Assembly: GCA_015489285.1 (NCBI GenBank)
Contig: WGAA01000230.1
Span: 1 to 35,927, forward strand
Length of the DNA stretch: 35,927 nucleotides
From: Anaerolineae bacterium
GTDB taxonomy: Bacteria; Chloroflexota; Anaerolineae; JAADDB01
Reading direction: 5' to 3'
Positions within the stretch are counted from its first letter, which is position 1. Each line of letters opens with the position of its first letter. Both the position numbers and the translations under genes were made by a program. A model generated the notes under the pieces. That model did no database searches. It was not told the origin of the DNA and worked only from the letters and a program-made list of their open reading frames with translations. Of the stretch, positions 14,776 to 32,152 are shown piece by piece.

Positions 14776-14809
14776 CCGAGATACGTCATCAGCCATTGGA
14801 GGTGGTTCA

Positions 14810-15367
14810 ATGAAAGGAGAACAGGCACATCGCGAGGCGCGAGGGTGGTTCAATCGGCCCACGAAACCGTACACATACCCCTACTGGGGTGGGATCTTGC
14901 TGGGGATCGTCCTCTTCCTGGCCTTCCTCATCCCGGGAACGGGGCTGGGAGCGTCGGGGGCTCTGGCCGCGGTGGGCGCGTTCATCGTCGACATCATCGC
15001 TCCGGGCCACGTGGACCGGACGCCCATTTTGGCCCACCTGGCCGGTGGCCACAAGAATCCCTTTTCCAGCTGGCTCATCCCCCTGGTCATTGGGATGATT
15101 ATCGGAGGCTTCGTCTCCGGTGTCATCGGCGGACGGGCCAAGTGGGAGACGACTCGCGGTCCTCGCATTTCCGATAAGACCCGCTGGGTCCTCGCGTTCG
15201 TGGGCGGCTTCATCTTCGTCTACGGGGCTCGGATGGCCCGAGGGTGTACGTCGGGCCAAGCACTGACGGGTGGGGCCGTCCTCTCCGCGGGGAGCTGGGC
15301 GATTATGATGGCCATCTTTGCAGGGGCGTACGCGCTGGCGTACTTCCTGCGCAACGTGTGGAATTAA
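14810..15367 (+). CDS. YeeE/YedE-family sulfur-compound transporter, half-size subunit A
   Basis: ARMARGCTSGQALTGG motif and multiple Gly-rich TM helices. ATG 14810 after GGAGGTGG; alternative ATG at 14765 overlaps the upstream stop. Confidence 0.8.
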   Translation: MKGEQAHREARGWFNRPTKPYTYPYWGGILLGIVLFLAFLIPGTGLGASGALAAVGAFIVDIIAPGHVDRTPILAHLAGGHKNPFSSWLIPLVIGMIIGGFVSGVIGGRAKWETTRGPRISDKTRWVLAFVGGFIFVYGARMARGCTSGQALTGGAVLSAGSWAIMMAIFAGAYALAYFLRNVWN

Positions 15368-15388
15368 CCGGCTCGTGAGGAGGCAGCT

Positions 15389-17781: not shown

Positions 17782-17812
17782 GGCGCGATAGGGTCAACCT
17801 TGTCTTCGCGCC
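17782..17812 (-). repeat. Conserved-loop element copy 3
   Basis: Reverse complement reads GGCGCGAAGACAAGGTTGACCCTATCGCGCC (7-bp stem GGCGCGA/TCGCGCC). Confidence 0.6.
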
Positions 17813-17941
17813 ATCCTTTCGTTCGTCGGTGGTCGGTCGTCGGGTGTCATTCGTCATCCGTCATGCGTCAGGCGCCGGTGAGAACGTCGGCGCTGCAGGC
17901 GTAGTTTGGCGTGATGACGTGATGCGTAATTTGGGCGACGA

Positions 17942-17978
17942 GGTTCGCGCTGTGGGGCCAACCTTGTCTTCGTGCCGG
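17942..17978 (-). repeat. Conserved-loop element copy 4 (more diverged)
   Basis: Reverse complement reads CCGGCACGAAGACAAGGTTGGCCCCACAGCGCGAACC. Confidence 0.5.
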
Positions 17979-18113
17979 TCAGTTACTCGTTACTCCGTTA
18001 CTCGTTATTTCCCATGTGTGATATAGTAGGGGTGGAGGTGGGGAGTGCCTCCCGCCTCCTTCACACCGATGTGCGTCCCATCCAAATTTCAGTACACCAC
18101 GAGGAGGTGCGTC

Positions 18114-18692
18114 ATGTCGAAGAAGATCCTCATGTTGGTCGGCGACTACGCGGAAGACTACGAAACCATGGTGCCCTTCCAGGCCCTCCAGATGGTCGGC
18201 TACACCGTCCACGCGGTGTGTCCGGGCAAGAAAGCAGGGGAGTTCGTGCGCACGGCCATCCACGATTTCGAGGGAGATCAGACGTACAGCGAGAAGCGGG
18301 GGCATAATTTCACCCTCAACGCCACATTCGACGAAATCGACCCCGCGGAATACGATGGTCTGGTGCTCCCGGGGGGCCGGGCGCCGGAGTACATCCGCCT
18401 CAACGAACGGGTCCTGGAAATCGTTCGGCACTTTGCCGAGACCAACAAGCCCATCGCGGCCATCTGCCACGGGCCTCTGGTGCTGGCCGCTGCAGGGGTA
18501 CTCAAAGGACGTAAGGCGACGGCCTACCCGGCCGTGGGGCCGGATGTGGCGAACGCGGGGGCGGAATACGTGAGTGTCCCCGTCGACCAGGCCTTTGTGG
18601 ACGGCAACCTGGTCACCGCGCCGGCGTGGCCTGCCCATCCCGTATGGCTAGCCAAGTTCCTGGAAGTCCTCGGCGCCAAGGTGGAAATCTAA
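18114..18692 (+). CDS. DJ-1/PfpI family protein (PfpI-type intracellular protease/glyoxalase-like)
   Basis: [23 protein letters not shown], nucleophile elbow [13 protein letters not shown], ~192 aa. ATG 18114 after GAGGAGGTG. Confidence 0.9.
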
Positions 18693-18718
18693 CCCCTCGT
18701 CGGGGCACCGTCATCGCT

Positions 18719-18762
18719 CCTTAGTACTCGGCGCTTTTCGTCCCAAGCGCCGAGTACTAAGG
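18719..18762. terminator. Bidirectional terminator hairpin between convergent genes
   Basis: 18-bp arms CCTTAGTACTCGGCGCTT / AAGCGCCGAGTACTAAGG with an 8-nt loop, between the DJ-1 stop (18692) and the ABC ATPase stop (18770). Confidence 0.6.
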
Positions 18763-18769
18763 TCCCCCC

Positions 18770-19543
18770 TCACAGAATGTGCCGCAGGAACTCGCGAGTA
18801 CGTTCGTGCTTCGGGTGGGAGAACATCTCCTCGGGAGGGGCTTCCTCCACGAACACCCCCTGATCCATGAAGATAACCCGGTTGGCAGCGTGGCGGGCGA
18901 ACCCCATCTCATGAGTGACCACCAGCATGGTCATGCCCTCCGCGGCCAACTCCTCCATGACCTTCAACACCTCTCCGACCAGCTCCGGGTCCAGGGCCGA
19001 TGTGGGCTCATCGAAGAGCATCACGTCCGGGTGCATGGCCAGCGCGCGGGCAATGGCCACCCGTTGCTGTTGTCCCCCGGAAAGGCGGCTCGGGTACTCA
19101 TCCCGTTTATCCATCAAGCCCACCTTCTCCAGGAAGTACTCGCCGATGCGTATCGCTTCCTCCCGGGGCATCTTCTTCACCGTCACCAACCCTTCGATAA
19201 CGTTCTCCAGCGCGGTCATGTGGGGGAAGAGGTTGAACGACTGGAACACCATGCCCACGTGGGTGCGCAACTCCCGAATGAGACGTTGTTCCCGCCGACC
19301 GTAGTGATGTTTGGCCTTGATGTGATACCCCGCGATGCGAATTTCCCCGATATCGGGCTTCTCCAGGAGGTTCAAACAGCGCAAGAAGGTGCTTTTCCCG
19401 CTCCCGCTGGGGCCGATGATGCACACCACCTCCTGGGGGCGCACCTGTAAGTTCACCCCTCGAAGGACGTGAAGGTTACCGAACCACTTGTGCAAATTGG
19501 ATACATCAACGATATACTCTTCCGATTGCTCCCGTTCTTCCAT
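18770..19543 (-). CDS. Polar amino-acid ABC transporter ATP-binding protein (GlnQ/ArtP-like)
   Basis: Walker [10 protein letters not shown], signature [15 protein letters not shown], Walker [12 protein letters not shown], and the conserved C-terminus ...ERTREFL. Confidence 0.9.
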
Positions 19544-19613
19544 CTACCTCCTCCCCTTCCCTTCCGAACACTTCGGGACCACGTCGTTCCGACGTCCCCA
19601 CCGCCCCTCCGTC

Positions 19614-20468
19614 TCAGTGGAGCACCATCTGGCGTTCGGATTTGCCCAAACGCCGTTCGATCTGGCGCTGGATGTTCTCGAAGATCATGGTGACCATCCA
19701 GTAAAATGCGGCAGCGATGAGCAACGTCTCCATACTGCGGAAGTATTGGCGGCCTACCTTTTGAGCCCGCCAGAAGAGCTCGTGCACCCCCATAAAGGAG
19801 ACGAGCGCGCTATCCTTGAGCATGGCGATGAACTCATTCCCCGTGGGAGGGATGATGACCCGCAGGGCCTGAGGGAGGATAATGCGACGCATCATCTGCC
19901 CATACGTCATGCCCAGGGCCAGCGCGGCCTCTCGCTGCCCGTGGGGGATGGATTGAATGCCCGCCCGGAAGATCTCCGTCATGTAGGCCCCGTAGTTCAC
20001 CCCCAGGGCCAGAATGCCCGACAGGGTCGCCGGCAAGATCAACCAGTGACTCCACGGCTTATCCGGAAAGGTCTGGGCGATTTGGGGCAAGGCCAGGTAG
20101 ACGAAGAAGATTTGCACAATCAGGGGGGTGCCGCGAATGATGGAAATGTAAAACGTGGAAATGCTGTTGAACACCGGATTCGTGGAAATCCGACCCAACG
20201 CGCCCAAAAGGGCCAGCACAATGGCCAGGGAAATGGACGCCGCGGAGACGAACAACGTCATCGGAATACCGCGTGCAATGTAAGGCAACCATTTCCGCTG
20301 AAATGAGGTATCCAGACCCAGGCGACGCAGGACCAGGTACAAGAAGATGAGGATGATGACATACGTGATAGCAAATCGGGCTCGCTGCCCCGAACGGGAA
20401 TGCCACCAACCGGAAAACCCCCGTGCTTGAGGGGGTACAACTTCAGGTGCTGCTTCCGACACAGACAT
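19614..20468 (-). CDS. Polar amino-acid ABC transporter permease (HisM/GlnP family)
   Basis: RGTPLIVQIFFVYLALP... EAALALGMTYGQMMRRIILPQALRVIIPP (EAA loop). ATG 20468 after GGGAGGAGGG. Confidence 0.85.
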   Translation of the reverse strand: MSVSEAAPEVVPPQARGFSGWWHSRSGQRARFAITYVIILIFLYLVLRRLGLDTSFQRKWLPYIARGIPMTLFVSAASISLAIVLALLGALGRISTNPVFNSISTFYISIIRGTPLIVQIFFVYLALPQIAQTFPDKPWSHWLILPATLSGILALGVNYGAYMTEIFRAGIQSIPHGQREAALALGMTYGQMMRRIILPQALRVIIPPTGNEFIAMLKDSALVSFMGVHELFWRAQKVGRQYFRSMETLLIAAAFYWMVTMIFENIQRQIERRLGKSERQMVLH

Positions 20469-20529
20469 CTTACGCCCTCCTCCCAACCGTGGGAGGGGGA
20501 TATCCTCTATCCCCCCTCCCACGGGTCAC

Positions 20530-21474
20530 TCATCGTACAATCCTCGTTCCCGTCTCCCCGCGCAGTGCGCGCGTAATGTTTTCCGGATTCGTGATGATAG
20601 CCTCTTTTCCTCCAGCCTCCAAAAATCGGATACACGCTTCTACCTTCGGCAACATGCTTCCCGGCGCGAAGTGTCCCTCCGCGATATACCGTTTCGCCTC
20701 CTCCACCGTCATCCGGTCCAACCACTTCTGGTTTGGCTTACCGAAGTTAATGGCCACCTTCTCCACCGCGGTGGAGATCAGGAAAAGATCGGCCCGAATT
20801 TCCCGGGCCAGGAGGCTGCTGGCCTTATCCTTGTCGATGACCGCGGCCACCCCTTGCAGGGAACCATCCTCCGTCTCGACCACAGGGATGCCTCCCCCGC
20901 CCGTGGCGATGACGATCCAGCCGTTGCGCACGGCTTGCTCGATGGCCGGACGTTCAACGATGGCCTTGGGCTCGGGAGAAGGGACCACCCGTCGCCACCC
21001 ACGCCCTGCGTCCTCCACCACGGGCCACCCCTCGGCCGCGAACTTCTCGGCCTCCTCCTTGGTGAGGAAACCGCCGATGGGCTTCGTCGGGTGTTGGAAC
21101 GCGGGATCACCCTTGTCGACCAGCACCTGGGTGACCACCGTGTAGGCCAATTTCTGCATCCCGCGGCGCCGGAACTCGTTATCCAGGGCCTGTTGCAACA
21201 TGTAACCGATGGACCCCTGCGTATCGGCCACGATAATGTCCATGGGGGTCATGTGAACCTCGTGCGCGGCCAACTCATTCCGCCGCAGGATGAACCCCAC
21301 CTGCGGGCCGTTGCCGTGGGTGACGACCACATCCCACCCTTCCTCGATCATATCCGCGATGTGGCGACACGTCTCCCGCACCGCTTCCCACTGGTACTTC
21401 ACCTCCACGTGCTGTTTGTCCTTGATGAGGGAATTTCCCCCAATAGCGACTACTGCGACGCGCCTGTTGCTCAT
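20530..21474 (-). CDS. arcC: Carbamate kinase
   Basis: VVAIGGNSL, VVTHGNGPQVG, TKPIGGF, RRVVPSPEP, ATGGGGIPV, AVIDKDKAS, FAPGSMLPKV. ATG 21474 after GAGGTGA; GTG 21483 alternative. Confidence 0.9.
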   Translation of the reverse strand: MSNRRVAVVAIGGNSLIKDKQHVEVKYQWEAVRETCRHIADMIEEGWDVVVTHGNGPQVGFILRRNELAAHEVHMTPMDIIVADTQGSIGYMLQQALDNEFRRRGMQKLAYTVVTQVLVDKGDPAFQHPTKPIGGFLTKEEAEKFAAEGWPVVEDAGRGWRRVVPSPEPKAIVERPAIEQAVRNGWIVIATGGGGIPVVETEDGSLQGVAAVIDKDKASSLLAREIRADLFLISTAVEKVAINFGKPNQKWLDRMTVEEAKRYIAEGHFAPGSMLPKVEACIRFLEAGGKEAIITNPENITRALRGETGTRIVR

Positions 21475-21479
21475 CGATC

Positions 21480-22457
21480 TCACCTCATTGTCAAAGCCAT
21501 GATAGCTTTTTGGACGTGGAGACGATTTTCCGCCTCGTCGAAGACCACGGATTGGGGCCCGTCCAACACCGAGCTCGCCACCTCGATATCCCGGTCCGCG
21601 GGGAGAGGATGCATGTAAATCGCGTCCGGGGCGGCCAGGGCCATGCGCTCATCGGTCACAATCCAATCCTTGTACTTATCCTGCAACTTCTTGCCCTCCT
21701 CGGGATCCGTCGTCGTCAGAAGGGGACCCCAGGATTTGGCATAAACCACATCGGCCCCTTTGAAGCCCTCATCCATGTCGTGGACGATGTCGAAACCGGT
21801 GCCGTGCTTCCGGGCGAGCGCCTTGGCCTCCTCCACGATCTCCGGCATGAGCGGAAATTCCGGGGGATAGGAAAGAACCACGTCCATGCCAAACCGCGGC
21901 ATCAACAGAATCAACGACTGGGGGACGGAAATCGGCTTCAAGTACGAAGCCGCGTAGGCCCAGGACACGACGATGCGTTTGCCCTGAGGATTGCCCTTCT
22001 TCTCCATGATGGTCATCAAATCGGCCAGGATCTGGAAGGGATGGAAGATGTCGCACTGCATGTTGAGGACCGGCACCCGGGAAGCCGAGGCCACGTCCCG
22101 GATGTACTTGTTCCCAATGCCCCAATCCACGTTGCGGATGGCGATGCCGTCGAAATACCGGCCCAGGATCTCGCCGATCTCCTTGGCCGTATCCCCGTGC
22201 GCGATCTGCGTTGTCCGGGACTCGATGAACGCGGCATGTCCCCCCAATTGGGCCATCCCCGCCTCAAAGGAGGACCGGGTCCGCGTGCTCGAGTAGAAGA
22301 ACAGCATCGCCAACGTCTTGTCCCGCAACAGGGGGTGCGGAATACCCAACGCGCGTTCCTGCTTCAAGCGAAACGCGACCTCCAGCGCGGTCTCCAACTC
22401 CTCCTTGGTCCATTCCAAGGTCGTAATCATATCTCGTCCGCGCAAATTCGTCTGCAT
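21480..22457 (-). CDS. Carbamoyltransferase of the OTC/ATC superfamily, YgeW-like (unknown second substrate)
   Basis: STRTR carbamoyl-phosphate motif, TQIAHGDT, MQCDIFHPFQ, WAYAASYLKPISVPQS, RFGMDV, YAKSWGP, YMHPLPAD. These blocks resemble E. coli YgeW as I recall it. ATG 22457 after AGGAGG; the ORF track start 22463 is TTG. Confidence 0.75.
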   Translation of the reverse strand: MQTNLRGRDMITTLEWTKEELETALEVAFRLKQERALGIPHPLLRDKTLAMLFFYSSTRTRSSFEAGMAQLGGHAAFIESRTTQIAHGDTAKEIGEILGRYFDGIAIRNVDWGIGNKYIRDVASASRVPVLNMQCDIFHPFQILADLMTIMEKKGNPQGKRIVVSWAYAASYLKPISVPQSLILLMPRFGMDVVLSYPPEFPLMPEIVEEAKALARKHGTGFDIVHDMDEGFKGADVVYAKSWGPLLTTTDPEEGKKLQDKYKDWIVTDERMALAAPDAIYMHPLPADRDIEVASSVLDGPQSVVFDEAENRLHVQKAIMALTMR

Positions 22458-22584
22458 GGCCAACCTCCTAGAAAGGAATTATCGAGCCCACCCCACACAA
22501 CACCGGCGGGGAAAGGCATCCGCCCGGAACGGAAGGTGCACAGCCGTCCCGGACGGGTAAAAGCACGGTCAAACCGCCGCGAGC

Positions 22585-23808
22585 TCACCGCTCCTTCTCG
22601 ATGTTTCGGATCAACGCGGGCAAAATAGCGTAAAACCCCGTCGCGTCCACCACGTCCTTCAAGGGGACCTGATCCTCCACCGTGTGGGCGTAAATCTCGT
22701 CGCCGGGGCCAAAACCGATGCTGGGGATACCCGCTTTCCCCATCCAGTAAATGCCGTTCGTGCTGAAGTTCCACTTCCCCGTCCGGGTCGGCCGGCCGAA
22801 GTAGAGCTCGTAAGCTTTCAAGCCGGCCTGGACGAGAGGATGATCCTCCTCCAGCGCCCAGGCGGGGAAGTACTTCTCCACGGGGAAGACAAAGCCCGTG
22901 TAGCTCGGCTCCTTGTACTGGAGGATCTCCACCCACACATCCCCCTTCTCCCGGTTCTCAGGAGGAATGAGGGACTCCACCTCTTGCAACGCCCGCTCCT
23001 TTGTCTCGCCAAAGGTTACCCGTCGGTCGATCCAAATGGTGGCCTCGTCGGGAACCGCGTTGATGCTGGGGGTTTTGACCTTCATGTCCGTGACGGTGAT
23101 CTTTCCCTTCCCCAGGAAGGGATGGTCGCCTAATTTGGGGCCCAGATCCCGCACCCCTGCGATGACGGGAAGAATTTTGTAGATCGCGTTATCCCCCAGC
23201 TCATTGCTGGCCGCATGGGCCGAGCGCCCCTTGGCCACGACCTTCATCTCCACCCGCCCTTTGTGCCCGCGGTACACCTGCATCTTCGTGGGCTCGCCGA
23301 TGACCACGAAATCGGGGCGGATGCCCTCCACTTCGACGAGGGCGTTGGGCGCCAGCCCGTCGCACCACTCCTCCATGTTCCCGAAATAGTACGCGGTGAC
23401 CCCCTCCAGCAGGCCCAACATCTTGGCAAAGGCCAGGCCGTACACCATGCCCGGAGTGGAACCCTTCTCATCGCACGCCCCTCGCGCGTAGAGAATGCCG
23501 TTTTCCACCTTTCCCTCGAAGGGGTCCCACTCCCACGCCTCGGGGTCCCCGATCCCTACCGTATCGATGTGACTATCGTAAAGAAGCACCTTCGGTCCGT
23601 TGCCGATGCGCCCCACGATGTTCCCCATGCGGTCGAACCACATGTCATCGAAGCCCAGCTTCTCCATTTCAGCCGCGATGCGCTCTCCCACCTCGCGGAT
23701 CTGGCCGTCCATGCTGGGGATGGCCACGATATCCCGCATGAAGCGGACGATATCCTCCTCCGCGGCCTCCACCGCAGCACGCACGGCCTGAACGGTTTTC
23801 TCGTCCAT
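22585..23808 (-). CDS. M20-family metallohydrolase, YgeY-like
   Basis: DIVAIPS, DSHIDTVG, GACDEKG, EEWCDGL, GIRPDFVVIGEPT..QVYRGHKGRVE, GDNAIYK, KWNFSTNG, GIPSIGFGPG. RBS AAGGAGGAAG. Confidence 0.75.
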   Translation of the reverse strand: MDEKTVQAVRAAVEAAEEDIVRFMRDIVAIPSMDGQIREVGERIAAEMEKLGFDDMWFDRMGNIVGRIGNGPKVLLYDSHIDTVGIGDPEAWEWDPFEGKVENGILYARGACDEKGSTPGMVYGLAFAKMLGLLEGVTAYYFGNMEEWCDGLAPNALVEVEGIRPDFVVIGEPTKMQVYRGHKGRVEMKVVAKGRSAHAASNELGDNAIYKILPVIAGVRDLGPKLGDHPFLGKGKITVTDMKVKTPSINAVPDEATIWIDRRVTFGETKERALQEVESLIPPENREKGDVWVEILQYKEPSYTGFVFPVEKYFPAWALEEDHPLVQAGLKAYELYFGRPTRTGKWNFSTNGIYWMGKAGIPSIGFGPGDEIYAHTVEDQVPLKDVVDATGFYAILPALIRNIEKER

Positions 23809-23828
23809 AGCGACTTCCTCCTTGAACT

Positions 23829-23839
23829 GTAAAGTTTAC
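23829..23839. promoter_or_regulatory. Palindrome GTAAAGTTTAC, candidate GntR-type operator upstream of the M20 gene
   Basis: Perfect 5+1+5 palindrome of GT...AC type, immediately upstream of the RBS of the M20 gene. It is adjacent to the GC hairpin CCCCGGG-cgt-CCCGGGG (23849-23865). Confidence 0.3.
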
Positions 23840-23885
23840 GGCCCCTCCCCCCGGGCGTCCCGGGGCAGAGCCGTTCATCGCGCCC

Positions 23886-24674
23886 TTATTTGCGAATGAC
23901 GTGAAAGCGAACAAGGCCGGGTATGAAATAATGGCGCTCGTAAGCCACCGGAACACTTCTCTCGTCGTACAGCACCTGCTCCAGGAAGAGGAGCGATTGC
24001 CCTTCGGGGACCTCCAACGCCCGGGCCAGGGCCGTATCCGCGTCGACGGCCAGGACATTGGTATAGGCGTAGGAGACGATGGGCTTTCCCCGGCGGCGCA
24101 GCATATCCAACAATGACCCCTGAAAGGTCAATTTTACCTCCTCCAGGGGCACAAGGGCGGCGGGGATGACGTCCAGCATCCAGGCCACCGGAATGTCGTC
24201 GACCAGGCGAGTGCGTGAAATGACGACGACGGATTCTCCCTCGGGGATGCCGAGGCGGGCCGCGGCCTTGGGCAGAGCGGCCTCCAGCCGAATGTGGAGA
24301 TCGCGCGTCCGCACCACCTTGTTACGGCGACGCATGATCTCGTCCAGGCTCTCCAAAACCTCGAGCCCCCCTTCCACGGTGATGGGGGGCACATTGACAA
24401 AGGTTCCCACGCCTCGCCGACGGACGATGATCCCCTGGGATTCCAGCGCCCGCAACACCTCCCGTAGCGTCGCGCGGGAAACTCCCAGCTGTTTAGCCAA
24501 CTCCGGCTCCGGCGGCAACTTGTCCCCCGGGCGATATCCGCCTTTGGCCAACAATTGCGTCAACGCATCCTGGGCCCTCATGTACAAGGGCCGAATGTCC
24601 CGGCCTCCTCTGCCGGATCCTTCCTCCACTTCCTGCTCCACGGTCGACTCCCCTCCCATACTTTGCGCCCACAT
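23886..24674 (-). CDS. GntR-family transcriptional regulator, HutC/UTRA subfamily
   Basis: Winged HTH GDKLPPEPELAKQLGVSRATLREVLRALESQGIIVRRRGVGTFV, plus a UTRA-like C-terminal half. ATG 24674 lies 5 nt after the permease stop. The longer ORF (to 24968) would overlap the permease gene. Confidence 0.85.
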   Translation of the reverse strand: MWAQSMGGESTVEQEVEEGSGRGGRDIRPLYMRAQDALTQLLAKGGYRPGDKLPPEPELAKQLGVSRATLREVLRALESQGIIVRRRGVGTFVNVPPITVEGGLEVLESLDEIMRRRNKVVRTRDLHIRLEAALPKAAARLGIPEGESVVVISRTRLVDDIPVAWMLDVIPAALVPLEEVKLTFQGSLLDMLRRRGKPIVSYAYTNVLAVDADTALARALEVPEGQSLLFLEQVLYDERSVPVAYERHYFIPGLVRFHVIRK

Positions 24675-24679
24675 CACGG

Positions 24680-25609
24680 TCACCGCTCCCCACGGACGTA
24701 CGGGATACCCAACGCCGCGGGAGCGCCAACGCGTCGGCGTACCCGCTCCTGTGTGGCGAAAATGAGAACCAAGATGGTGAAAAGGTACGGCATCATTTGC
24801 AGGAAATAAATGGGGATCGTGACCCCCTTCGTCTGCAAACCAAACTGCAGGGAGTTCACCCCACCGAACAGATACGAACCCAGCGCCGCCCGCAAGGGAT
24901 CCCAGAAGGCGAAAATGACCAGCCCCACCGCGATCCACCCGCGGCCGGCCGTCATCCCCTCGATCCACCCGGGGGTGTACGAAAGGGAAATCGTGGCTCC
25001 CCCCAAACCGGCCAACATCCCCCCGATGAAGGTGTACAGGTAACGCAGCTTGAACACGTTGATACCGGCCGCATCGGCCGTAGCGGGATCCTCCCCCACA
25101 GCCCGCAAGTGCAATCCCGGCCGCGTCTTGAAAATGAAATACCAGGCCAGCGGGAAAAGGAGGAAGGAGAAGTACACCAGCGGATCCCGCTGAAAGAGCA
25201 CCTCCCCCAGGAAAGGAATGCGGGAGAGCAGCGGGATCTTCCAGGCGGTGAAGCGGACACCGGGCACCCCTACGTAGGGTTTCCCCACCAGTGCGCTCAG
25301 CCCGGAGCCGAACAAGGTCAACGCGAGGCCGCTCACCACCTGATCCCCCCGCAAGGTGATGCTGACGAAGGCGTGAATGAGGCTCATCAGCCCCCCTACC
25401 AGCATGGCGGCCAGGGCACCGACCCAGGGGCTCCCCGTCTTCAACCCGACGATGAAACCGGAAACCGCCCCCATCAACATCATTCCTTCCACGCCCAGGT
25501 TGAGCACCCCGGCCCGTTCCGCGAAAATCTCCCCAATCGTCGCGTACAAAATCGGCGTACCGGCCCGGATGGCCGCAATTAGCGTCGCAGAAATGAAGAC
25601 CCAGTCCAT
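24680..25609 (-). CDS. ABC transporter permease (BMP/nucleoside-type system, second permease)
   Basis: Multi-TM protein with FAERAGVLNLGVEGMMLMGA. ATG 25609 after AGAGGGAAA. Confidence 0.85.
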   Translation of the reverse strand: MDWVFISATLIAAIRAGTPILYATIGEIFAERAGVLNLGVEGMMLMGAVSGFIVGLKTGSPWVGALAAMLVGGLMSLIHAFVSITLRGDQVVSGLALTLFGSGLSALVGKPYVGVPGVRFTAWKIPLLSRIPFLGEVLFQRDPLVYFSFLLFPLAWYFIFKTRPGLHLRAVGEDPATADAAGINVFKLRYLYTFIGGMLAGLGGATISLSYTPGWIEGMTAGRGWIAVGLVIFAFWDPLRAALGSYLFGGVNSLQFGLQTKGVTIPIYFLQMMPYLFTILVLIFATQERVRRRVGAPAALGIPYVRGER

Positions 25610-25643
25610 GAGTTTCCCTCTATCCCTCTGGATTGACGTCCCC

Positions 25644-26783
25644 TCAAGAGGACACGCGCTCAATCCGCAATGTGTAATAGCTGAGAATTTCTCCGCCCAG
25701 GACGAAGAACAAAATCAACCCCTGCAAGATGAACGAAACCGCTACCGGAAGCCCCATGCTGATCTGGAGCTGATCCCCGGCCACGAGCAACGCCCCAAAG
25801 AGAAAAGCCACGACCGGCAGAACCAGCGGGTGGAGCTTGGCCAACCACGCGATGATGATGGCCGTATAGCCGTAGCCCGGGGAAATTTGGTGCTGCAAGC
25901 GATGGATAATGCCCATGACTTCGGCCATTCCGGCCACCCCGGCCAGGCCCCCACTGATGGCCATGACGATGAGGACGTTGCGGGCGATGCGCATGCCCGC
26001 GTAGCGGGCGGCCTTCTGGTTGCGGCCGATGACGTCCACCTCGAACCCCCACTTGCTCCGAGTGACGAACACGTACAGGAGGATGGCCGCGATGATGCCG
26101 AACAGGAGTCCCAGGTGAACCCGATGCCGCGGCGTGAGGAAGAACAAGCCGGGGGTCCGAGGCAACCATAACTCCCGGGGAAACACGGCCGTCAGGGGGA
26201 ATCCCAAGCTGGCCGGGTCCTTCCAGGGCACGTTGACCAGGTAATCCACCCAGAGGATGGCCACATAGTTGAGCATCAGGGTGGTGATGATCTCGTTGAC
26301 GTTCAGGTAGGCCTTCAAGGCCCCCGGGATCAGGGCCCAGAGGGCGCCGGCGGCAAATCCGGCCGCGGTGATGATGACCAACCACATCCACGGCTGGATC
26401 TGGGGGAACTTCTGGGGGAGAAAGAGGGCGATTCCTCCCGCGGCAATGGCCCCCATGTGCAATTGTCCCTCCGCGCCGATGTTCCACAACTGCATGCGAA
26501 AAGCCAGGGAGACCCCCAACCCGGCCAGGATCAGGGGAATGGTCTTCACCAGCGTCTCCCCCAGGGCGTACTTGGACCCGAACGCGCCTTTAGCCATGGC
26601 CACATACGCCGCGACCGGATCCACCCCATTCGCCCAAATGAGCAAGGCGCCTGTGAGCAATCCCAACACGATGGACAACACAGGGACGATTGCGCTCACC
26701 CAGCGAGGACGTACCAGCCGCTGTTCGACGCGAATTCTCCAGGGAAATCCTCCCCGCCCCACCTTCATATCCTCCACGGTCAT
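25644..26783 (-). CDS. ABC transporter permease (BMP/nucleoside-type system, first permease)
   Basis: Multi-TM protein with FRMQLWNIGAEGQLHMGAI. ATGA overlap with the ATPase stop. Confidence 0.85.
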   Translation of the reverse strand: MTVEDMKVGRGGFPWRIRVEQRLVRPRWVSAIVPVLSIVLGLLTGALLIWANGVDPVAAYVAMAKGAFGSKYALGETLVKTIPLILAGLGVSLAFRMQLWNIGAEGQLHMGAIAAGGIALFLPQKFPQIQPWMWLVIITAAGFAAGALWALIPGALKAYLNVNEIITTLMLNYVAILWVDYLVNVPWKDPASLGFPLTAVFPRELWLPRTPGLFFLTPRHRVHLGLLFGIIAAILLYVFVTRSKWGFEVDVIGRNQKAARYAGMRIARNVLIVMAISGGLAGVAGMAEVMGIIHRLQHQISPGYGYTAIIIAWLAKLHPLVLPVVAFLFGALLVAGDQLQISMGLPVAVSFILQGLILFFVLGGEILSYYTLRIERVSS

Positions 26784-28303
26784 GCGCCTCTTCCCTCCAG
26801 ACGAGTTCCTGCCATAAGCAGGCCGATTTCCTCCACCGGGGCATCCGGTGGGACCTCACCCATGATCTCGCCTTCGTACATGACAATGATGCGATCGCTC
26901 AACGCCCGCACCTCTTCCAGGTCCTCGGAGATGAGGAGAATAGCCGCCCCCTGGGAACGCTGCTCCAACAACCGCTGGCGGACGGCTTCCGTGGCCCCCA
27001 CGTCCAACCCCTGGGTCGGGTGGACGGCGATGACGACCGCGGGCCGGGAGGAGAATTCCCGGGCCAGAATAAGCTTCTGGATGTTCCCACCGGACAGGGT
27101 ACGGGCCTCCACATCGGGATTGGGAGCCATCACGTCGAAATGGCGGAGGAGTTCCTTGGCCTTCTCCCGCATCTGCTTCCAGTTCAGGAAGAAGCCCGGC
27201 AGGCGACGGTACGCCTTGAGGAACAGGTTGCCCGTGAGGTGCAGAGAGGGAACGATGCCCACGTGCACCCGGTCTTCCGGAATGTGGCTCACACCGGCAT
27301 CGATGAAGGCCCGAGCCCCCGCGTTCGTCAAATCCTGTCCGTTGACCCGCACGCGTCCCCCCGTGCTCTCCCGCAAGCCGGTAATGACCTCGGCCAGCTC
27401 GCTCTGCCCGTTCCCGGAAACACCGGCCACCCCCAGAATCTCCCGCTCCCGCACGTGGAAAGTGACCCCCTTGAGGGCCGGAACCCCGCGATCACTCAAC
27501 GCCCGGAGCCCCTGCACCTCCAACACGGGAGCGCCCGGCTCGACGGGTTCCTTCTCTATGTGGAAGAGGACCTCACGCCCCACCATCATGCGGGCCAGCT
27601 CCTCCTTGGTGGCCATCTGCGCCTCCACCGTCCCCACCACTCGACCTTTGCGCAGGATGGTGATGCGGTCGGCGATGGCCAACACCTCGTCCAGCTTGTG
27701 GGAGATGAAGATGATGGTATGCCCTTCCCGGGCCATCCGTCGCAGGGTGACGAAGAGCTCCTCCACTTCCTGGGGGGTAAGGACGGCCGTGGGTTCGTCC
27801 ATGATGAGGATGCGGGCCCCCCGGTAGAGGGCTTTGAGGATCTCGACTCGCTGTTGCTCGCCCAGGCTGAGCTGCCAGATATACGCCTGGGGGTCGACTT
27901 TGAGGCCGTATTGCTCTTCCAACCGGCGGATCTCTTGCTCCGCCTCGGCCAGGTTGAGGAAGAAACGGGGTTTATCCAGCCCGAGGATGATGTTTTCGGC
28001 CACCGTGTGGGTTTCGACGAGCTTGAAATGCTGGTGGACCATGCCGACACCGTGGGCGATGGCGTCACGCGGGGAGTTGAAGACGACCCGTCGACCGTAA
28101 AGGTAAATTTCCCCTTCGTCAGGACGGTAGAGGCCGCTGAGGATGTTCATCAACGTGGTCTTGCCGGCCCCATTTTCCCCCAAAAGAGCGTGGATTTCCC
28201 CCTCATAGGCACTGAAATTCACGTGATCGTTTGCCAAAACGCCGGGGAAGCGTTTGACAATGTTCCGCATCTCTACGGCAATACGCGCTGTTTCCCCTTC
28301 CAT
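26780..28303 (-). CDS. ABC transporter ATP-binding protein with duplicated cassettes (sugar/nucleoside type)
   Basis: Cassette 1: GENGAGKTTL, LSLGEQQRVEILKAL, LIMDEPT. Cassette 2: GVSGNGQSEL, LSGGNIQKLILAREF. ATG 28303 after GGGAGG. Confidence 0.9.
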   Translation of the reverse strand: MEGETARIAVEMRNIVKRFPGVLANDHVNFSAYEGEIHALLGENGAGKTTLMNILSGLYRPDEGEIYLYGRRVVFNSPRDAIAHGVGMVHQHFKLVETHTVAENIILGLDKPRFFLNLAEAEQEIRRLEEQYGLKVDPQAYIWQLSLGEQQRVEILKALYRGARILIMDEPTAVLTPQEVEELFVTLRRMAREGHTIIFISHKLDEVLAIADRITILRKGRVVGTVEAQMATKEELARMMVGREVLFHIEKEPVEPGAPVLEVQGLRALSDRGVPALKGVTFHVREREILGVAGVSGNGQSELAEVITGLRESTGGRVRVNGQDLTNAGARAFIDAGVSHIPEDRVHVGIVPSLHLTGNLFLKAYRRLPGFFLNWKQMREKAKELLRHFDVMAPNPDVEARTLSGGNIQKLILAREFSSRPAVVIAVHPTQGLDVGATEAVRQRLLEQRSQGAAILLISEDLEEVRALSDRIIVMYEGEIMGEVPPDAPVEEIGLLMAGTRLEGRGA

Positions 28304-28406
28304 GCAATAGCCTCCCGGAAGAATGTAGGGGAATCGGGGTGCCATGTGCGCCGACATGGCACCCCGACGAGCGATCCGTCAGAATGGCATCATCCCACGA
28401 GGCCCA

Positions 28407-30641
28407 TTACTGGGGTATCTCGCCGACGACCCCTTCGACGAACCACTTCATGCTCAACATCTCCTCATCGGAGAGACATTGCCCCTCAGGCACCTTCACG
28501 TTGCCGTTCTGGTCCTTGATGGGGCCGCAGAAGACATCCCAGGACCCGTCGATGATCTTCTGCTTCTCCTGCTCGACCAGGGCCTTCACATCGTCGGGGA
28601 CCATATCGCCGTAGGGGCCCAGGTCGACGACCCCGTCGGCCAGACCACCCCAGTACGGTGTCGGATCGAATTTGCCGGCCTGAATGTCCTTGACGACCTT
28701 GGTGTAGTACACACCCCAGTGCCAGACGGGACCGGTGAGCACGGCCTTGGGGGCGAAAGAGCGCATATCCGAGTTATAGCCGATGCCGTAGGCCCCGTGG
28801 TCCTGGGCGGCCTGCATGGGAGCCGGCGTATCCTGGTGCTGGGCGATTACATCCACGCCCGAGGAAAGGAGCGTCTCCGCGGCCTCCCGCTCCGTGGGCG
28901 GATCGTACCACGTGTTCGTCCACACGACTTGGACGGTCGCGTTGGGATTGACCTTACGCACTCCCAGGGTGAAGGCGTTGATCCCGCGGATGACCTCGGG
29001 AATGGGGAAAGCGGCCACGTAGCCGATCTTGTTGCTCTTCGTCATCTTGCCGGCTACAAGGCCAGAGAGATAGCGCGGTTGATACATGCGGCCGAAGTAG
29101 TTGGTGAAATTCTTGCCGTTGGACTTGTACCCGGAGCAATGCAACCAGTAGACATCGGGATACTCCTCGGCCAGAGCCGCCATCGTGTCCATGTAGCCGA
29201 AGGAGGTCCCGAAGATGACGTCATATCCCTTCTCCGCGAAATCGCGGAAAACGCGCTCGGCATCGGCGCCCTCGGGCACGCTCTCCACATACGCCGTCTC
29301 CACGTTGGGGACGTTCTTCTCCAGCTCCAGACGTCCCTGATCGTGGGCATAGGTCCAACCCGCGTCACCAATGGGGCCCACGTAGACGAACGCGGCCTTG
29401 ATCGGCTTGGCCTCCGCGCCCGACTCGGCAGGGGCTTCTGCCTTCTTCTCCTCCGCCTTGGGAGGTTCCTCGCCGCCGGGGATCTCGCCGATCACGCCCT
29501 TGACGAACCACTTCATGTTCCAAATCTGCTCCCAGGAGAGGCTATCCCCCTCGGCCACGGCGAGCTGTCCGTTCTGGGCGTAGATGGGCCCGGCCCCCAC
29601 ATCGAGTTCGTGAGAGACGATCTTCTTCTTGAGCTCGCTCACCTTTTCCTTGATGGCGTCATCCGCGGCCGGACCGAACTTGAAGTCCACGATGCCGGTA
29701 TCCGCATCCCACCAGGAATCGGGCAGCCCACGCGGCTTGAACGTGCCCTCCTTCACCTCCTTGAGGATCTCCGCGTAAGCAACGCCCCAATTCCAATGAG
29801 GCACACCGATGCACCCGGCGCCCGCGAGCTCACACGCGTTGGGGCTGTCGTAGGCCATGCCCCATTTGCCCTTCTCCGTGGCCGCCTGGACGGGGCCGGG
29901 CGTGTCGGACCCGGTGATGATGACATCCGCGCCTGCGGCCAGCAGGGTTTCCGCGGCCTCACGCTCTGTGGGCGGGTCGTACCAGGAGTTGATCCACACG
30001 ACCTGGACCTGGATGTCGGGGTCTACGCTGTGGGCCCCCAGGGTGACGAAGTTGATATGCCGGATGACCTCAGGAATGGGGAAGGGGGCGACATACCCCA
30101 GCTTCTTGGTTTTCGTCTTCATGGCCGCGGCCACGCCGGCCAGGTACTTCATCTTGTACATGCGGCCGAAGAGGTTGTCGAAATTCGTGTCGTTCCACTT
30201 GTACCCCGAGACGTGAATCCACACGGTGTCGGGATATTCCTGGGCCAGCTTCTCCATCGTGTCCATGTAGCCGAAGGAGGTTCCGAAAATGACATCGTAC
30301 CCCTTCTCCGCGAACTCGCGGAAGACGCGCTCGGCGTCGGCTCCTTCGGGCACGCTCTCCACGTACGTGGTCTCCACATCGGGCATGACCTTTTCCACGT
30401 ACTTGCGTCCCAAATCGTGGGCATAGGTCCACCCCGCATCACCGATGGGGCCGACGTACACCCAGGCGGCTTTGAGCTTCTTCCCCCCCTCTTTTTCGGC
30501 CTGAGCGGGCTGTGTCGGTTGGGTTGCGCCCATGGTCTGGGCCGGGGCGGGTTTCGTGGGCGTCGGGGTGGCTTTGGAACAAGCGCCTACCACCAAAGCG
30601 ATGAGCAGGACGAGCAGTACAACTCCCCACAGACGGCGCAT
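28407..30641 (-). CDS. Lipoprotein with two tandem BMP-family (Med/PnrA-like) substrate-binding domains
   Basis: Signal + lipobox LLIALVVGAC. Two ~330-aa copies (nt ~29477-30479 and ~28410-29402) share VYVGPIGDAGWTYAHD and VESVPEGADAERVFR-FAEKGYDVIFGTSFGYMDTM. They are joined by a PPKAEEKKAEAPAESGAEAKP linker. ATG 30641 after AAGGAGAAGGAGG. Confidence 0.85.
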   Translation of the reverse strand: MRRLWGVVLLVLLIALVVGACSKATPTPTKPAPAQTMGATQPTQPAQAEKEGGKKLKAAWVYVGPIGDAGWTYAHDLGRKYVEKVMPDVETTYVESVPEGADAERVFREFAEKGYDVIFGTSFGYMDTMEKLAQEYPDTVWIHVSGYKWNDTNFDNLFGRMYKMKYLAGVAAAMKTKTKKLGYVAPFPIPEVIRHINFVTLGAHSVDPDIQVQVVWINSWYDPPTEREAAETLLAAGADVIITGSDTPGPVQAATEKGKWGMAYDSPNACELAGAGCIGVPHWNWGVAYAEILKEVKEGTFKPRGLPDSWWDADTGIVDFKFGPAADDAIKEKVSELKKKIVSHELDVGAGPIYAQNGQLAVAEGDSLSWEQIWNMKWFVKGVIGEIPGGEEPPKAEEKKAEAPAESGAEAKPIKAAFVYVGPIGDAGWTYAHDQGRLELEKNVPNVETAYVESVPEGADAERVFRDFAEKGYDVIFGTSFGYMDTMAALAEEYPDVYWLHCSGYKSNGKNFTNYFGRMYQPRYLSGLVAGKMTKSNKIGYVAAFPIPEVIRGINAFTLGVRKVNPNATVQVVWTNTWYDPPTEREAAETLLSSGVDVIAQHQDTPAPMQAAQDHGAYGIGYNSDMRSFAPKAVLTGPVWHWGVYYTKVVKDIQAGKFDPTPYWGGLADGVVDLGPYGDMVPDDVKALVEQEKQKIIDGSWDVFCGPIKDQNGNVKVPEGQCLSDEEMLSMKWFVEGVVGEIPQ

Positions 30642-30852
30642 GGTGACCCTCCTTCTCCTTGGTCGTCCTTCTTTGAACTCGCGTTCCATACCTTGGGTGA
30701 CGTCTCGACATCCTCCGTGTTCGGCAAAAGATCGGCCTCATGTCCCCATCGCGCCGAGATCATCACCCTGTGACCTCGGTCATGAAAAGAGCCCGTCACG
30801 CCCTTTTGACATCGCCGAGGTACACCCAAACACGCGGGGAATCACGAATGTA

Positions 30853-30882
30853 ATAGTACCATCATTCGGGGGAAATTGTCAA
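30853..30882 (-). promoter_or_regulatory. Candidate sigma70-type promoter for the BMP transporter array
   Basis: Minus strand reads TTGACA (30882..30877), 18-nt spacer, TACTAT (30858..30853). This would give a ~200-nt leader. Confidence 0.3.
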
Positions 30883-30886
30883 TCCC

Positions 30887-30899
30887 GTTGTCAGACAAC
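30887..30899. promoter_or_regulatory. Perfect palindrome GTTGTCAGACAAC, candidate GntR/HutC operator
   Basis: 6+1+6 palindrome abutting the candidate -35. A second GT-N6-AC-type site, GTAATAGTAC (30850-30859), overlaps the candidate -10. Confidence 0.3.
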
Positions 30900-31021
30900 C
30901 CTGGATTGGGGAGGACCGTCCCCTTTTACCGTCACACGTTCAATTCCCAAGGGGGAGCGAAATACGTAAGATAAGAAGGGGAAAGCAAGAAACACCTGAC
31001 AGGAGTGCAAAGGCGATTGGC

Positions 31022-32152
31022 ATGACAGAAGGGAGATCGCTGTACGACCTCACGTACGAGGAACTGGAGGACGTCATCAAGGGGTGGGGGCACCCCGCGT
31101 ATCGCGCGCGCCAAATTTGGGAATGGGTGTACGTGAAATTGGCAGGGGATTTCGCCTCGATGACGAACCTGCCCAAAGAGCTACGCCGGCAATTGGCCGA
31201 GACATTTTCCCTGGCGCCGCTCCACCTCCTCACGGAGGCCGTCTCCACCGACAAGCGCACGCGCAAGGGGCTTTTCCGCCTCCGGGGGAACGAGACCGTG
31301 GAAACGGTACTCATGTTCTACGACAAGCGCCGCACGCTCTGCATCTCCAGCCAGGTCGGATGTGGAATGGGATGCCCCTTCTGCGCCACGGGCCTGAGCG
31401 GCTTCCGTCGCAACCTGAGCACGGGGGAAATCGTGGGCCAGGTTCTCTATTACGCCCGATGGCTTGCCGACCCTCTGGCAGGAGGGGAGGAGGCTGCCCC
31501 CGTCCCCCGACCCACCCGGGTGACCAATGTGGTCTTCATGGGCATGGGGGAGCCGATGGCCAACTACGACCGGGGGTGGAAAGCCATCCGCATCCTCACG
31601 GACAAACGGGGCTTCAACCTGGGCGCACGTCGTATTACCGTGAGCACCGTGGGCCTCGTCCCCGGAATCCTGCGGATGGCCGAGGAGGACTTGCAGGTCA
31701 AATTGGCCGTCTCCCTCCACGCGGCAGAGGACGAGCTGCGGAATTGGCTTGTCCCCATTAACCGGCGTTACCCCCTGGCCGAACTGATGGACGCGGTGCG
31801 GACGTACATCCGGCGGACGGGGCGCCGTGTGACCTTTGAGTACGCGCTCATGCGGGACATCAACGACCGTCCGGAGCACGCTCGGGCCCTCATCCGGCGC
31901 TTGAAAGGGGTTCTGGCGCACGTCAACCTCATCCCGCTGAACCCCGTCGAGGGCTCACCGTTTCAACCGAGCACCCGACGGACCACCGTCCGTTTTGCCC
32001 GCATGCTGGAGGACGCGGGCATTCCTGTCACCGTGCGTTTGCGTCGCGGGCTGGACATCAACGCGGGATGCGGCCAACTCCGACGTCACGTTCTTCAGGG
32101 AGGACAAGAGGGGGAAAAGAGAGAGGGAGAAATCACCGGGGTAAGGGGGTGA
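31022..32152 (+). CDS. rlmN: 23S rRNA/tRNA (adenine-C2)-methyltransferase RlmN (radical SAM)
   Basis: [12 protein letters not shown]-terminus, radical-SAM [21 protein letters not shown]-terminal GCGQL. Confidence 0.92.

Follow-up and report, generated by a model that had tools for sequence, protein, structure and literature searches.

The 35.9-kb window analysed here, which is the entire contig WGAA01000230.1 of an Anaerolineae bacterium (assembly GCA_015489285.1; G+C content, approximately 61%), carries a co-directional array of ten genes at positions 18770–30641, all on the minus strand. Protein matches assign the contig to an Anaerolineae-like member of Chloroflexota. The array is probably a repressor-controlled purine-utilisation operon of Anaerolineae-like Chloroflexota, in which the cleavage of a ureido compound would yield ATP. 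We favour this reading because three of its gene products, an M20-family hydrolase, a carbamoyltransferase, and a carbamate kinase, are homologous to Escherichia coli enzymes with published 2,3-diureidopropionate activity and ATP formation; because purine genes are linked to the transferase gene in related loci; because the importer encoded in the array is akin to purine-base binders; and because a single candidate promoter and operator precede the array. The ten open reading frames (ORFs) were established from an ORF listing and from Pfam and NCBIfam family scans, and their starts were refined by GGAGG-type ribosome-binding sites, which gave protein lengths equal to those in relatives and intergenic gaps of −4 to 127 nt. 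The first gene starts at position 30641, the same end coordinate as in a preliminary description of the window. That description had proposed ten minus-strand genes with gaps of −4 to approximately 127 nt, forming an operon-like array with a HutC-type regulator; the ORF coordinates and refined starts confirmed this, and most of its family assignments also hold (a tandem BMP binding protein, an ATP-binding cassette [ABC] ATPase and two permeases, a HutC-type GntR regulator, a YgeY-type M20 hydrolase, a carbamate kinase, and a polar-amino-acid permease and ATPase). On the opposite strand, an RlmN gene (31022–32152) diverges from the array, and a DJ-1/PfpI gene (18045–18692) converges with it.

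The M20 hydrolase (22585–23808), a predicted N-carbamoyl-diaminopropionate amidohydrolase of the YgeY family, passes the YgeY model TIGR03526 with 508.8 bits against a cut-off of 321.5 and shares 45% identity with E. coli YgeY over 382 amino acids. On the ArgE/DapE model it scores 157 bits, and the best ArgE/DapE structure gives 105 bits; the protein thus groups with YgeY, as had been anticipated, and not with ArgE/DapE. The carbamate kinase (20530–21474) scores 398.7 bits on TIGR00746 (cut-off, 358.25) and shares 51% identity with E. coli YqeA, while the carbamoyltransferase shares 36% identity with E. coli YgeW in a pairwise alignment. The proposal that the three genes are homologous to E. 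coli ygeY, ygeW, and yqeA is therefore supported. The anaerobic urate pathway to which these E. coli genes belong was reconstituted in two studies published in 2025 (bioRxiv 10.1101/2025.04.24.650524; PMC12507026). In that pathway, XdhD, then YgfK or UacX, and then SsnA and HyuA lead to 2,3-diureidopropionate; YgeW phosphorolyses one ureido group of this compound, after which YqeA makes ATP; and YgeY hydrolyses the other ureido group, with YgeX turning diaminopropionate into pyruvate. The two papers disagree on the order in which the ureido groups are removed (bioRxiv 10.1101/2025.04.24.650524; PMC12507026). Because they assign YgeW, YgeY, YqeA, and YgeX to the breakdown of 2,3-diureidopropionate, the earlier remark that the substrates of the triad are unsettled is outdated, and the suggested logic, resembling that of the arginine deiminase (ADI) pathway and running from phosphorolysis of a ureido compound through carbamoyl phosphate to ATP, gains support.

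The uricolytic cluster of E. coli and Clostridium sporogenes (ygeW-ygeX-ygeY-hyuA-yqeA with ssnA, ygfK, and xdhD) contains a triad homologous to that of the array and follows the same phosphorolysis-to-ATP logic. Xanthine dehydrogenase (XDH), SsnA, and hydantoinase genes accompany the triad in that cluster, and they are also linked to it in loci related to the array. In contrast, ygeX is present in the E. coli and C. sporogenes cluster and has no homolog in the array; regulation there involves the sigma-54 activator YgeV, whereas the array encodes a HutC-type GntR protein; uptake is served by NCS2 permeases rather than by a BMP-type ABC system; and the ring-opening genes, adjacent to the triad in that cluster, are not adjacent in the window. 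E. coli YgeX, SsnA, HyuA, YgfK, and XdhD gave no matches when used as queries on the window, and the absence from the window of hydantoinase, diaminopropionate ammonia-lyase, and XDH genes noted earlier was confirmed by these queries and by the ORF scans. The array is thus not itself a reductive urate (2,8-dioxopurine) cluster, in which XdhD, a reductase, SsnA, HyuA, and YgeX lie beside the triad; none of these is encoded in the window.

The carbamoyltransferase (325 amino acids; 21480–22457; OTCace_N and OTCace domains) passes no NCBIfam cut-off. It scores 201.2 bits on the YgeW model TIGR03316 (cut-off, 500) and 211.5 on NF005538 (cut-off, 453), 262 and 249 bits on two ornithine carbamoyltransferase (OTC) models (cut-offs, 306 and 281), and 257.6 bits on the N-acetylornithine carbamoyltransferase (AOTCase) model (cut-off, 288); all its scores on OTC and putrescine carbamoyltransferase (PTC) models are sub-threshold. 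Other members of its family score 173–196 bits on the YgeW model and likewise fall below every curated cut-off. The family is highly conserved, with 75–80% identity across the best 120 clusters, and at least 595 species genomes, almost exclusively Chloroflexota metagenome-assembled genomes, contain a member. Databases label the members “ornithine carbamoyltransferase” or “N-acetylornithine carbamoyltransferase”. Whereas YgeW has approximately 390 amino acids, additional helices at its termini, and two helices inserted in the 240's loop, the window enzyme is 70 amino acids shorter and lacks these elements; the pairwise alignment shows gaps of 11, 24, and 6 residues where YgeW has insertions, and the 240's loops differ. 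The motifs QIAHG[DE], N[ML]QCD..HP.Q, [ST]WAY..SY.KP.SVPQ, and Y[AP]KSW are common to the two enzymes. When judged by the knot and loop criteria for YgeW-type transferases (PMC4581275), the window sequence contains the proline-rich loop (SWAYAASYLKPISVPQS, compared with TWAYSPSYGKPLSVPQG in YgeW) and the extended 120's loop, which together are the signature of the knot, as well as a short 80's loop with Gln (TTQIAHGD, compared with SQIAHGE in YgeW). It also has NMQCDIFHPFQ where YgeW has NLQCDIDHPTQ, and the loops that define the second-substrate site (TTQIAHGD, NMQCDIFHPFQ, SWAYAASYLKPISVPQS, and YAKSWGP) are kept relative to YgeW. In a neighbour-joining tree of 84 sequences, the compact family was sister to the group (P0124, (P0166, E. 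coli YgeW)) with a bootstrap value of 49, within a knotted clade including AOTCase with a bootstrap value of 87, and apart from the OTCs. An AlphaFold2 model of the enzyme (38-sequence alignment; mean pLDDT, 65; pTM, 0.63) was too poor to check the knot. As far as its sequence indicates, the enzyme is a compact YgeW-like carbamoyltransferase of the knotted type, related to YgeW but outside that family as now defined. The preliminary description had taken it for YgeW itself; with 201 bits against the required 500, that assignment gives way to a shorter, YgeW-related family.

To place the array in context, 80 genome loci around the transferase were fetched and their ORFs clustered, and more relatives were collected from metagenome contigs with precomputed Pfam labels. 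Relatives with 89–96% identical transferases keep the gene order BMP, ATPase, permease, permease, (GntR), M20, transferase, and kinase, and their flanks all differ; the conserved unit is therefore eight genes. Because this eight-gene core recurs in the same order with different flanks, and because the association of GntR, M20 or a transferase paralog, transferase, kinase, and BMP-type ABC genes recurs across the 80 loci, the array is more than a chance assembly. A carbamate kinase gene lies near the transferase gene in 63 loci, almost always directly downstream (72 loci have enough downstream sequence), and a GntR homolog lies upstream in 50 of the 80. The common Chloroflexota layout is co-directional and begins, sometimes after FolD, with an 8-oxoguanine-deaminase-like amidohydrolase, an adenine deaminase, and a GntR/UTRA regulator; it continues with a YgeY-type M20 hydrolase and/or a second carbamoyltransferase, the transferase, the carbamate kinase, a BMP protein, an ATPase, and two permeases, and ends with a ThrC-like pyridoxal phosphate (PLP) enzyme, a GT2 glycosyltransferase, and a CysK-like PLP enzyme. 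The transporter genes thus lie upstream of the enzymes in the window and downstream of them in most loci.

Purine genes recur in these surroundings. Adenine deaminase (506 bits; cut-off, 472) and 8-oxoguanine deaminase (673 bits; cut-off, 532) are encoded upstream in approximately 30 loci, a selenium-dependent XDH (933 bits; cut-off, 830) occurs in a subset, and a hydantoinase/dihydropyrimidinase (543 bits on the dihydropyrimidinase model; cut-off, 393) occurs in L004, L047, L054, and L079. One locus (L021:76–8110) contains, in a single row, the paralog, the transferase, the kinase, a selenium-dependent XDH, an SsnA-like gene (439.5 bits; cut-off, 444), and, following the latter, an F420-type luciferase-like reductase gene. 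A sequence similarity network analysis has noted, in Chloroflexota, a form of the SsnA cluster that includes an F420-dependent reductase of the luciferase family (PMC12507026), and the row in L021 ties the compact transferase family directly to this published uricolytic variant, which, through that locus, has the same transferase family as the window. For the transferase, however, that paper gives just “YgeW (PF00185)” within 15 genes of SsnA; the compact family, the importer of BMP type, the operator of the GntR regulator, and the alternation of YgeY with a second carbamoyltransferase are not described there. In most loci, the 8-oxoguanine-deaminase-like gene was itself rejected as SsnA (24% identity); a separate SsnA-like subgroup exists. 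The preliminary description had regarded the triad as uncoupled from purine enzymes, but adenine deaminase, 8-oxoguanine deaminase, XDH, SsnA-like, hydantoinase, and F420-type reductase genes are all found in the related loci. These genes are physically linked to the transferase in other loci, and the module is not an independent pathway.

The family labels in the databases raise the question of whether the array is instead a unit for arginine, citrulline, or agmatine fermentation, in which a catabolic ornithine or putrescine carbamoyltransferase would act with the kinase to yield ATP and an amino-acid ABC transporter would bring the substrate. The transferase reaches its highest raw hidden Markov model scores on the OTC models, at 262 and 249 bits, its best PDB sequence match is the Pyrococcus OTC, and a polar-amino-acid ABC pair comes after the kinase gene. 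Deiminase-type systems likewise combine a carbamoyltransferase with a carbamate kinase in substrate-level ATP formation. However, the OTC and PTC scores all remain under their cut-offs; the motifs DxxxSMG and HCLP are absent, with VYAKSWGP and HPLP in their place; and the transferase branches away from the OTC clade, contrary to what would be expected of an ordinary OTC. The array also lacks a deiminase, an antiporter, and the OTC/PTC specificity motifs, and its genomic context is different from that of deiminase-type systems; no arginine or agmatine deiminase or antiporter was found among the recurrent families near the transferase, in a survey not aimed specifically at these genes. The amino-acid ABC pair, finally, is absent outside the closest relatives. 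We therefore consider a fermentation unit of this kind very unlikely. Another member of Chloroflexota, Thermoflexus hugenholtzii, consumed only adenine and adenosine from its medium, and its adjacent “ornithine carbamoyltransferase” and carbamate kinase genes were read as an arginine deiminase pathway (PMC8129789). Its use of adenine and adenosine is circumstantial evidence that fits a purine-utilisation operon, and the arginine deiminase annotation of the pair may need revisiting.

The amino-acid ABC pair consists of a permease (19614–20468; PF00528 [BPD_transp_1] and TIGR01726) and a polar-amino-acid-type (PAAT) ATPase (18770–19543), which is TcyN-, GlnQ-, and EhuA-like with all scores under the cut-offs. 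The pair occurs only in the 96%-identical closest relatives (L090 and L091) and near the transferase in none of the 80 loci, and no matching binding protein was found among the window ORFs scanned against Pfam. It is a recent lineage-specific addition. Of the ten-gene unit described earlier, the co-directional arrangement of all ten genes stands, but these two genes do not belong to the conserved core.

An anabolic arginine pair, in which an AOTCase would work with an ArgE-like M20 deacetylase and the carbamate kinase would serve as a carbamoyl-phosphate synthase, is highly improbable. The AOTCase score comes close to its cut-off (257.6 versus 288), Xanthomonas AOTCase is similar in its C-terminal region and in the YAKSWG motif, and some sources call the relatives N-acetylornithine carbamoyltransferase. 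The 80's loop, however, lacks the 12-residue insertion of AOTCase, and NMQCD replaces the NMET motif that carries the substrate-binding Glu144, so that QCD stands where AOTCase has this residue. The M20 partner is YgeY (509 bits) and not ArgE/DapE; no arg genes occur among the recurrent families in the fetched loci; and the context, with a HutC repressor of catabolic type, an importer, deaminases, and XDH, is also at odds with arginine synthesis.

In most related loci, a second carbamoyltransferase gene lies directly upstream of the main one, to which its product is 28% identical (L009:8973–9923, L016:8836–9858, and L038:8995–9999). This paralog scores as an aspartate carbamoyltransferase (ATCase; 251 bits; cut-off, 237), but it has HSLP and lacks the RxQ aspartate motif, and it is therefore a pseudo-ATCase. 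The M20 hydrolase and the paralog are near-exclusive, with M20 only in 18 loci, the paralog only in 37, and both in 5. This alternation fits a substrate with two carbamoyl groups and parallels the exchange of YgeW and UacY (PMC12507026); it suggests that both carbamoyl groups are removed by phosphorolysis in the loci with the paralog. A catabolic carbamoyltransferase beside a carbamate kinase, the ureidoglycine carbamoyltransferase (UGTCase), is also known in the purine degradation of Rubrobacter xylanophilus (PMC4016543). The Rubrobacter UGTCase, however, is a pseudo-ATCase acting on allantoate (PMC4016543), whereas the window enzyme falls in the knotted YgeW/AOTCase group, and a pseudo-ATCase-like paralog, as in the UGTCase branch, is found in the related loci and not in the window.

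These observations also bear on the identity of the ureido compound. There is a low but appreciable probability that a different ureido compound from the breakdown of an N-heterocycle is used, with the logic of phosphorolysis to ATP unchanged; candidates are N-carbamoyl-β-alanine from reductive pyrimidine degradation, allantoate or ureidoglycine as in the UGTCase route of Rubrobacter, 4-ureido-5-imidazolecarboxylate from the clostridial xanthine pathway, and a triazine or hydantoin derivative. In favour of this, the transferase forms a family of its own with a 240's loop unlike that of YgeW, the linked hydantoinase passes the dihydropyrimidinase model (543 versus 393), the paralog belongs to the branch that contains UGTCase, and at least 12 loci have FolD ahead of the cluster. 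Moreover, pockets of the type found in AtzT, the closest relative of known structure to the binding protein, accept triazines as well as purines (PMC6834077). In contrast, the named neighbours (deaminases, selenium-dependent XDH, SsnA-like protein, and F420-type reductase) all point to purines and the SsnA route, the substrate-contacting loops are conserved with YgeW, and AtzT binds pyrimidines with a Kd of 620 µM or weaker. No uricase, allantoinase, or dihydropyrimidine dehydrogenase was found among the recurrent families scanned, although no dedicated search was run.

The importer has all the components of a BMP/PnrA-type ABC system, namely a Bmp protein, a double ABC ATPase, and two BPD_transp_2 permeases. 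The binding protein (28407–30641) is a 744-amino-acid lipoprotein with two tandem BMP (PnrA-like) domains (PF02608 twice, 400 bits) and a signal peptide that ends in a VVGAC lipobox. It is followed by a 507-amino-acid ATPase with two nucleotide-binding domains (26780–28303; PF00005 [ABC_tran] twice), whose refined start has a GGAGG ribosome-binding site; by permease 1 (25644–26783; PF02653 [BPD_transp_2]), which overlaps the ATPase stop codon by 4 nt; and by permease 2 (24680–25609; 309 amino acids; PF02653), with the same start and length as in relatives. The two BMP domains are 58% identical to each other, and the close relative L092 has a single BMP protein, which is orthologous to domain 1 (83%). 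Both are nearest to AtzT (259 bits) and Brucella 3S99 (226 bits), whereas the nucleoside binder TmpC/PnrA scores approximately 30 bits; the earlier view of a nucleoside-type importer must accordingly be revised. AtzT (PDB 6PI5) binds guanine with a Kd of 110 nM and adenine with a Kd of 2.5 µM and binds GTP very poorly, and adenine has been modelled in the binding site of 3S99 (PMC6834077). The array domains share 43–48% identity with AtzT and 3S99 and keep the aromatic sandwich of AtzT (a stacking Trp/Trp pair), together with Ser97, Phe98, and Glu165. Asn220 is replaced by Asp in both domains, and Thr139, Asn169, and Asn218 are replaced by Lys, His, and Gly in domain 1 and by Arg, Gly, and His in domain 2. 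The fusion of two BMP domains in one lipoprotein also sets the array apart from AtzT and 3S99. The system is thus predicted to be a purine-base importer, in which the two pockets differ and probably bind different purines, and the fused second domain may widen or shift the ligand range.

The regulator gene (23886–24641) encodes a member of the HutC subfamily, with an N-terminal GntR winged helix-turn-helix domain (PF00392, 77.6 bits) and a C-terminal UTRA domain (PF07702, 94.2 bits). A palindrome, GTTGTCTGACAAC (30887–30899, minus strand), is the lone exact TTGTCWGACAA site in the window and the probable operator of this regulator; no further copies with up to two mismatches were found inside the array. 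Across the 80 loci, TGTCNGACA has 65 matches, of which 39 are no more than 350 nt upstream of a gene of the cluster, mostly the first one. The palindrome precedes the 8-oxoguanine-deaminase-like gene 24 times and GntR nine times, and it often abuts a TTGAC −35 box. In the window, it sits five bases upstream of a sigma-70-type promoter (30853–30882, minus strand) consisting of TTGACA, an 18-nt spacer, and TG-n-TACTAT, with 10 of 12 consensus positions and an extended −10 element. This is the best promoter-like site in 17800–31400. The consensus scan itself performed at chance level (promoters, 4 versus 4.0; terminators, 14 versus 10.9), and the site at 30882 was the only one kept, because it is conserved in relatives. 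An alignment of the window with L090 and L092 shows the operator and promoter to be conserved, but not the leader of approximately 200 nt. Since this leader is not conserved and an Rfam scan of the window gave no match, a riboswitch is unlikely. There is good comparative evidence for one GntR-controlled promoter for the array, at which the regulator would bind the palindrome and repress transcription.

Alternatively, the array could comprise several unrelated adjacent transcription units, namely a purine importer, a regulator with an enzyme module, and an amino-acid exporter or importer, which we consider quite unlikely. Strong hairpins follow the BMP gene and occupy the gap between the M20 and transferase genes, two gaps measure 77 and 127 nt, the order of the modules varies between lineages (transporter upstream here, downstream in most loci), and the amino-acid ABC pair is an add-on. 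Against separate units, the one promoter-like site and the one operator are both upstream of the first gene, the regulator gene occupies a central position, the core of eight genes stays together while its flanks change, and the linkage of transporter and enzymes recurs in at least 26 of the 80 loci. As for the hairpins, the preliminary description had placed a terminator only at the end of the array. A 19-bp hairpin is indeed present there (18721–18763, minus strand), common to the convergent DJ-1/PfpI gene, and the 76-nt stretch 18700–18775 that contains it folds to −41.3 kcal/mol (z = −6.0). However, no T tract follows it, and it is not the only hairpin. A 15-bp GC-rich hairpin (28333–28368, minus strand), also without a following T tract, lies between the binding-protein and ATPase genes, in a 103-nt gap (28304–28406) that folds to −50 kcal/mol (z = −3.7; 0 of 200 shuffles as stable), and the hairpin in the M20–transferase gap has z = −2.2. 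The hairpin at 28333–28368 may be a partial terminator or an mRNA stabiliser and may raise the expression of the binding protein relative to the membrane components; more generally, there may be internal termination or differential mRNA stability in the array.

Under the favoured reading of a purine-utilisation operon, a single promoter upstream of the BMP gene would drive the whole array, and the HutC-type GntR protein would bind TTGTCWGACAA until a purine-derived effector at its UTRA domain caused its release. The two-domain BMP lipoprotein would capture planar purine bases and pass them to the ABC importer. Reduction and opening of the ring would be carried out by XDH, an F420-type reductase, SsnA, and hydantoinase encoded elsewhere in the genome, and the product would be a di-ureido acid, most likely 2,3-diureidopropionate. 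The compact YgeW-like transferase would phosphorolyse one ureido group to give carbamoyl phosphate, from which, with ADP, the carbamate kinase would form ATP, CO2, and NH3, and the YgeY-type M20 hydrolase would take off the second carbamoyl group to leave 2,3-diaminopropionate. Several findings weigh against this scheme. SsnA, XDH, reductase, hydantoinase, and diaminopropionate lyase genes are all missing from the 35.9-kb window, so the source of the ureido substrate in this organism is hypothetical; and none of the loci has a YgeX homolog. The transferase scores below the cut-off of the YgeW model and is without the YgeW insertions, and its sister relationship to YgeW has a bootstrap value of only 49% in a neighbour-joining tree. 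Furthermore, four of the nine ligand-contact positions of AtzT differ in the binding protein, so the ligand could be another planar heterocycle, and the hairpins inside the array could split transcription.

It is also conceivable, though unlikely, that the operon stands alone as a unit for scavenging and does not form the last part of a purine pathway of the cell itself. By way of the tandem binding protein, a planar, partly degraded purine or other N-heterocycle released by neighbouring cells may then be imported, and the compact transferase may act on a ureido substrate not yet described. If so, the abundant Anaerolineae would gain ATP by cross-feeding on the nitrogen-rich waste of others, and sister loci with two transferases would phosphorolyse both carbamoyl groups and gain two ATP per molecule.

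Other genes accompany the cluster in related loci. A ThrC-like PLP enzyme with an N-terminal zinc ribbon is encoded after the kinase or the transporter in approximately 35 loci, and a GT2 glycosyltransferase and a 490-amino-acid CysK-like PLP enzyme follow the kinase or the transporter in approximately 17–24 loci; examples of these genes are found at L081:17092–20847, L045:8844–10118, and L016:14561–16039. The two PLP enzymes were rejected as YgeX orthologs (27% identity over a partial alignment, or no similarity); the ThrC-like enzyme may nevertheless stand in for diaminopropionate ammonia-lyase. Immediately upstream of their purine clusters, at least 12 loci (e.g., L043:3673–4563) encode FolD (methylenetetrahydrofolate dehydrogenase/cyclohydrolase), which may reflect conserved synteny or a link to one-carbon handling.

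Outside the array, the genes of the window are unrelated to it. They include two adjacent multihaem cytochrome c genes (10429–11886 and 11890–14775) with eight and seven CXXCH motifs, respectively, the second of which is fused to a cytochrome b561-type membrane domain; the pair could be an electron-transfer module in a member of Chloroflexota. Two adjacent YeeE/YedE-type sulfur-transport ORFs (14765–16618) follow, the second fused to a rhodanese domain. At 48–2954, a 968-amino-acid protein with seven FG-GAP repeats and SdrD-B/carboxypeptidase-regulatory-like domains is encoded, which is probably a surface protein.

The logic of the pathway and its E. coli counterparts are already published, and a literature search for the Chloroflexota module found nothing specific. 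In the literature searched, the compact transferase family and its mis-annotation, the linkage to a BMP purine-base importer, the tandem binding protein, the conserved operator, and the exchange between YgeY and the pseudo-ATCase appear to be undescribed. At the threshold applied in published urate-pathway surveys, at least 63% identity to YgeW, the compact transferase family would be missed. The candidate repressor–operator pair and the fused two-domain purine binding protein are open to direct test, and the exchange of YgeY for the pseudo-ATCase would be a natural replacement of hydrolytic by phosphorolytic removal of the second carbamoyl group. Digesters, sediments, and hot springs harbour abundant Anaerolineae and related Chloroflexota, whose energy sources are poorly defined. 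In these bacteria, a very conserved and mis-annotated enzyme would be tied to purine fermentation with a substrate-level gain of ATP.

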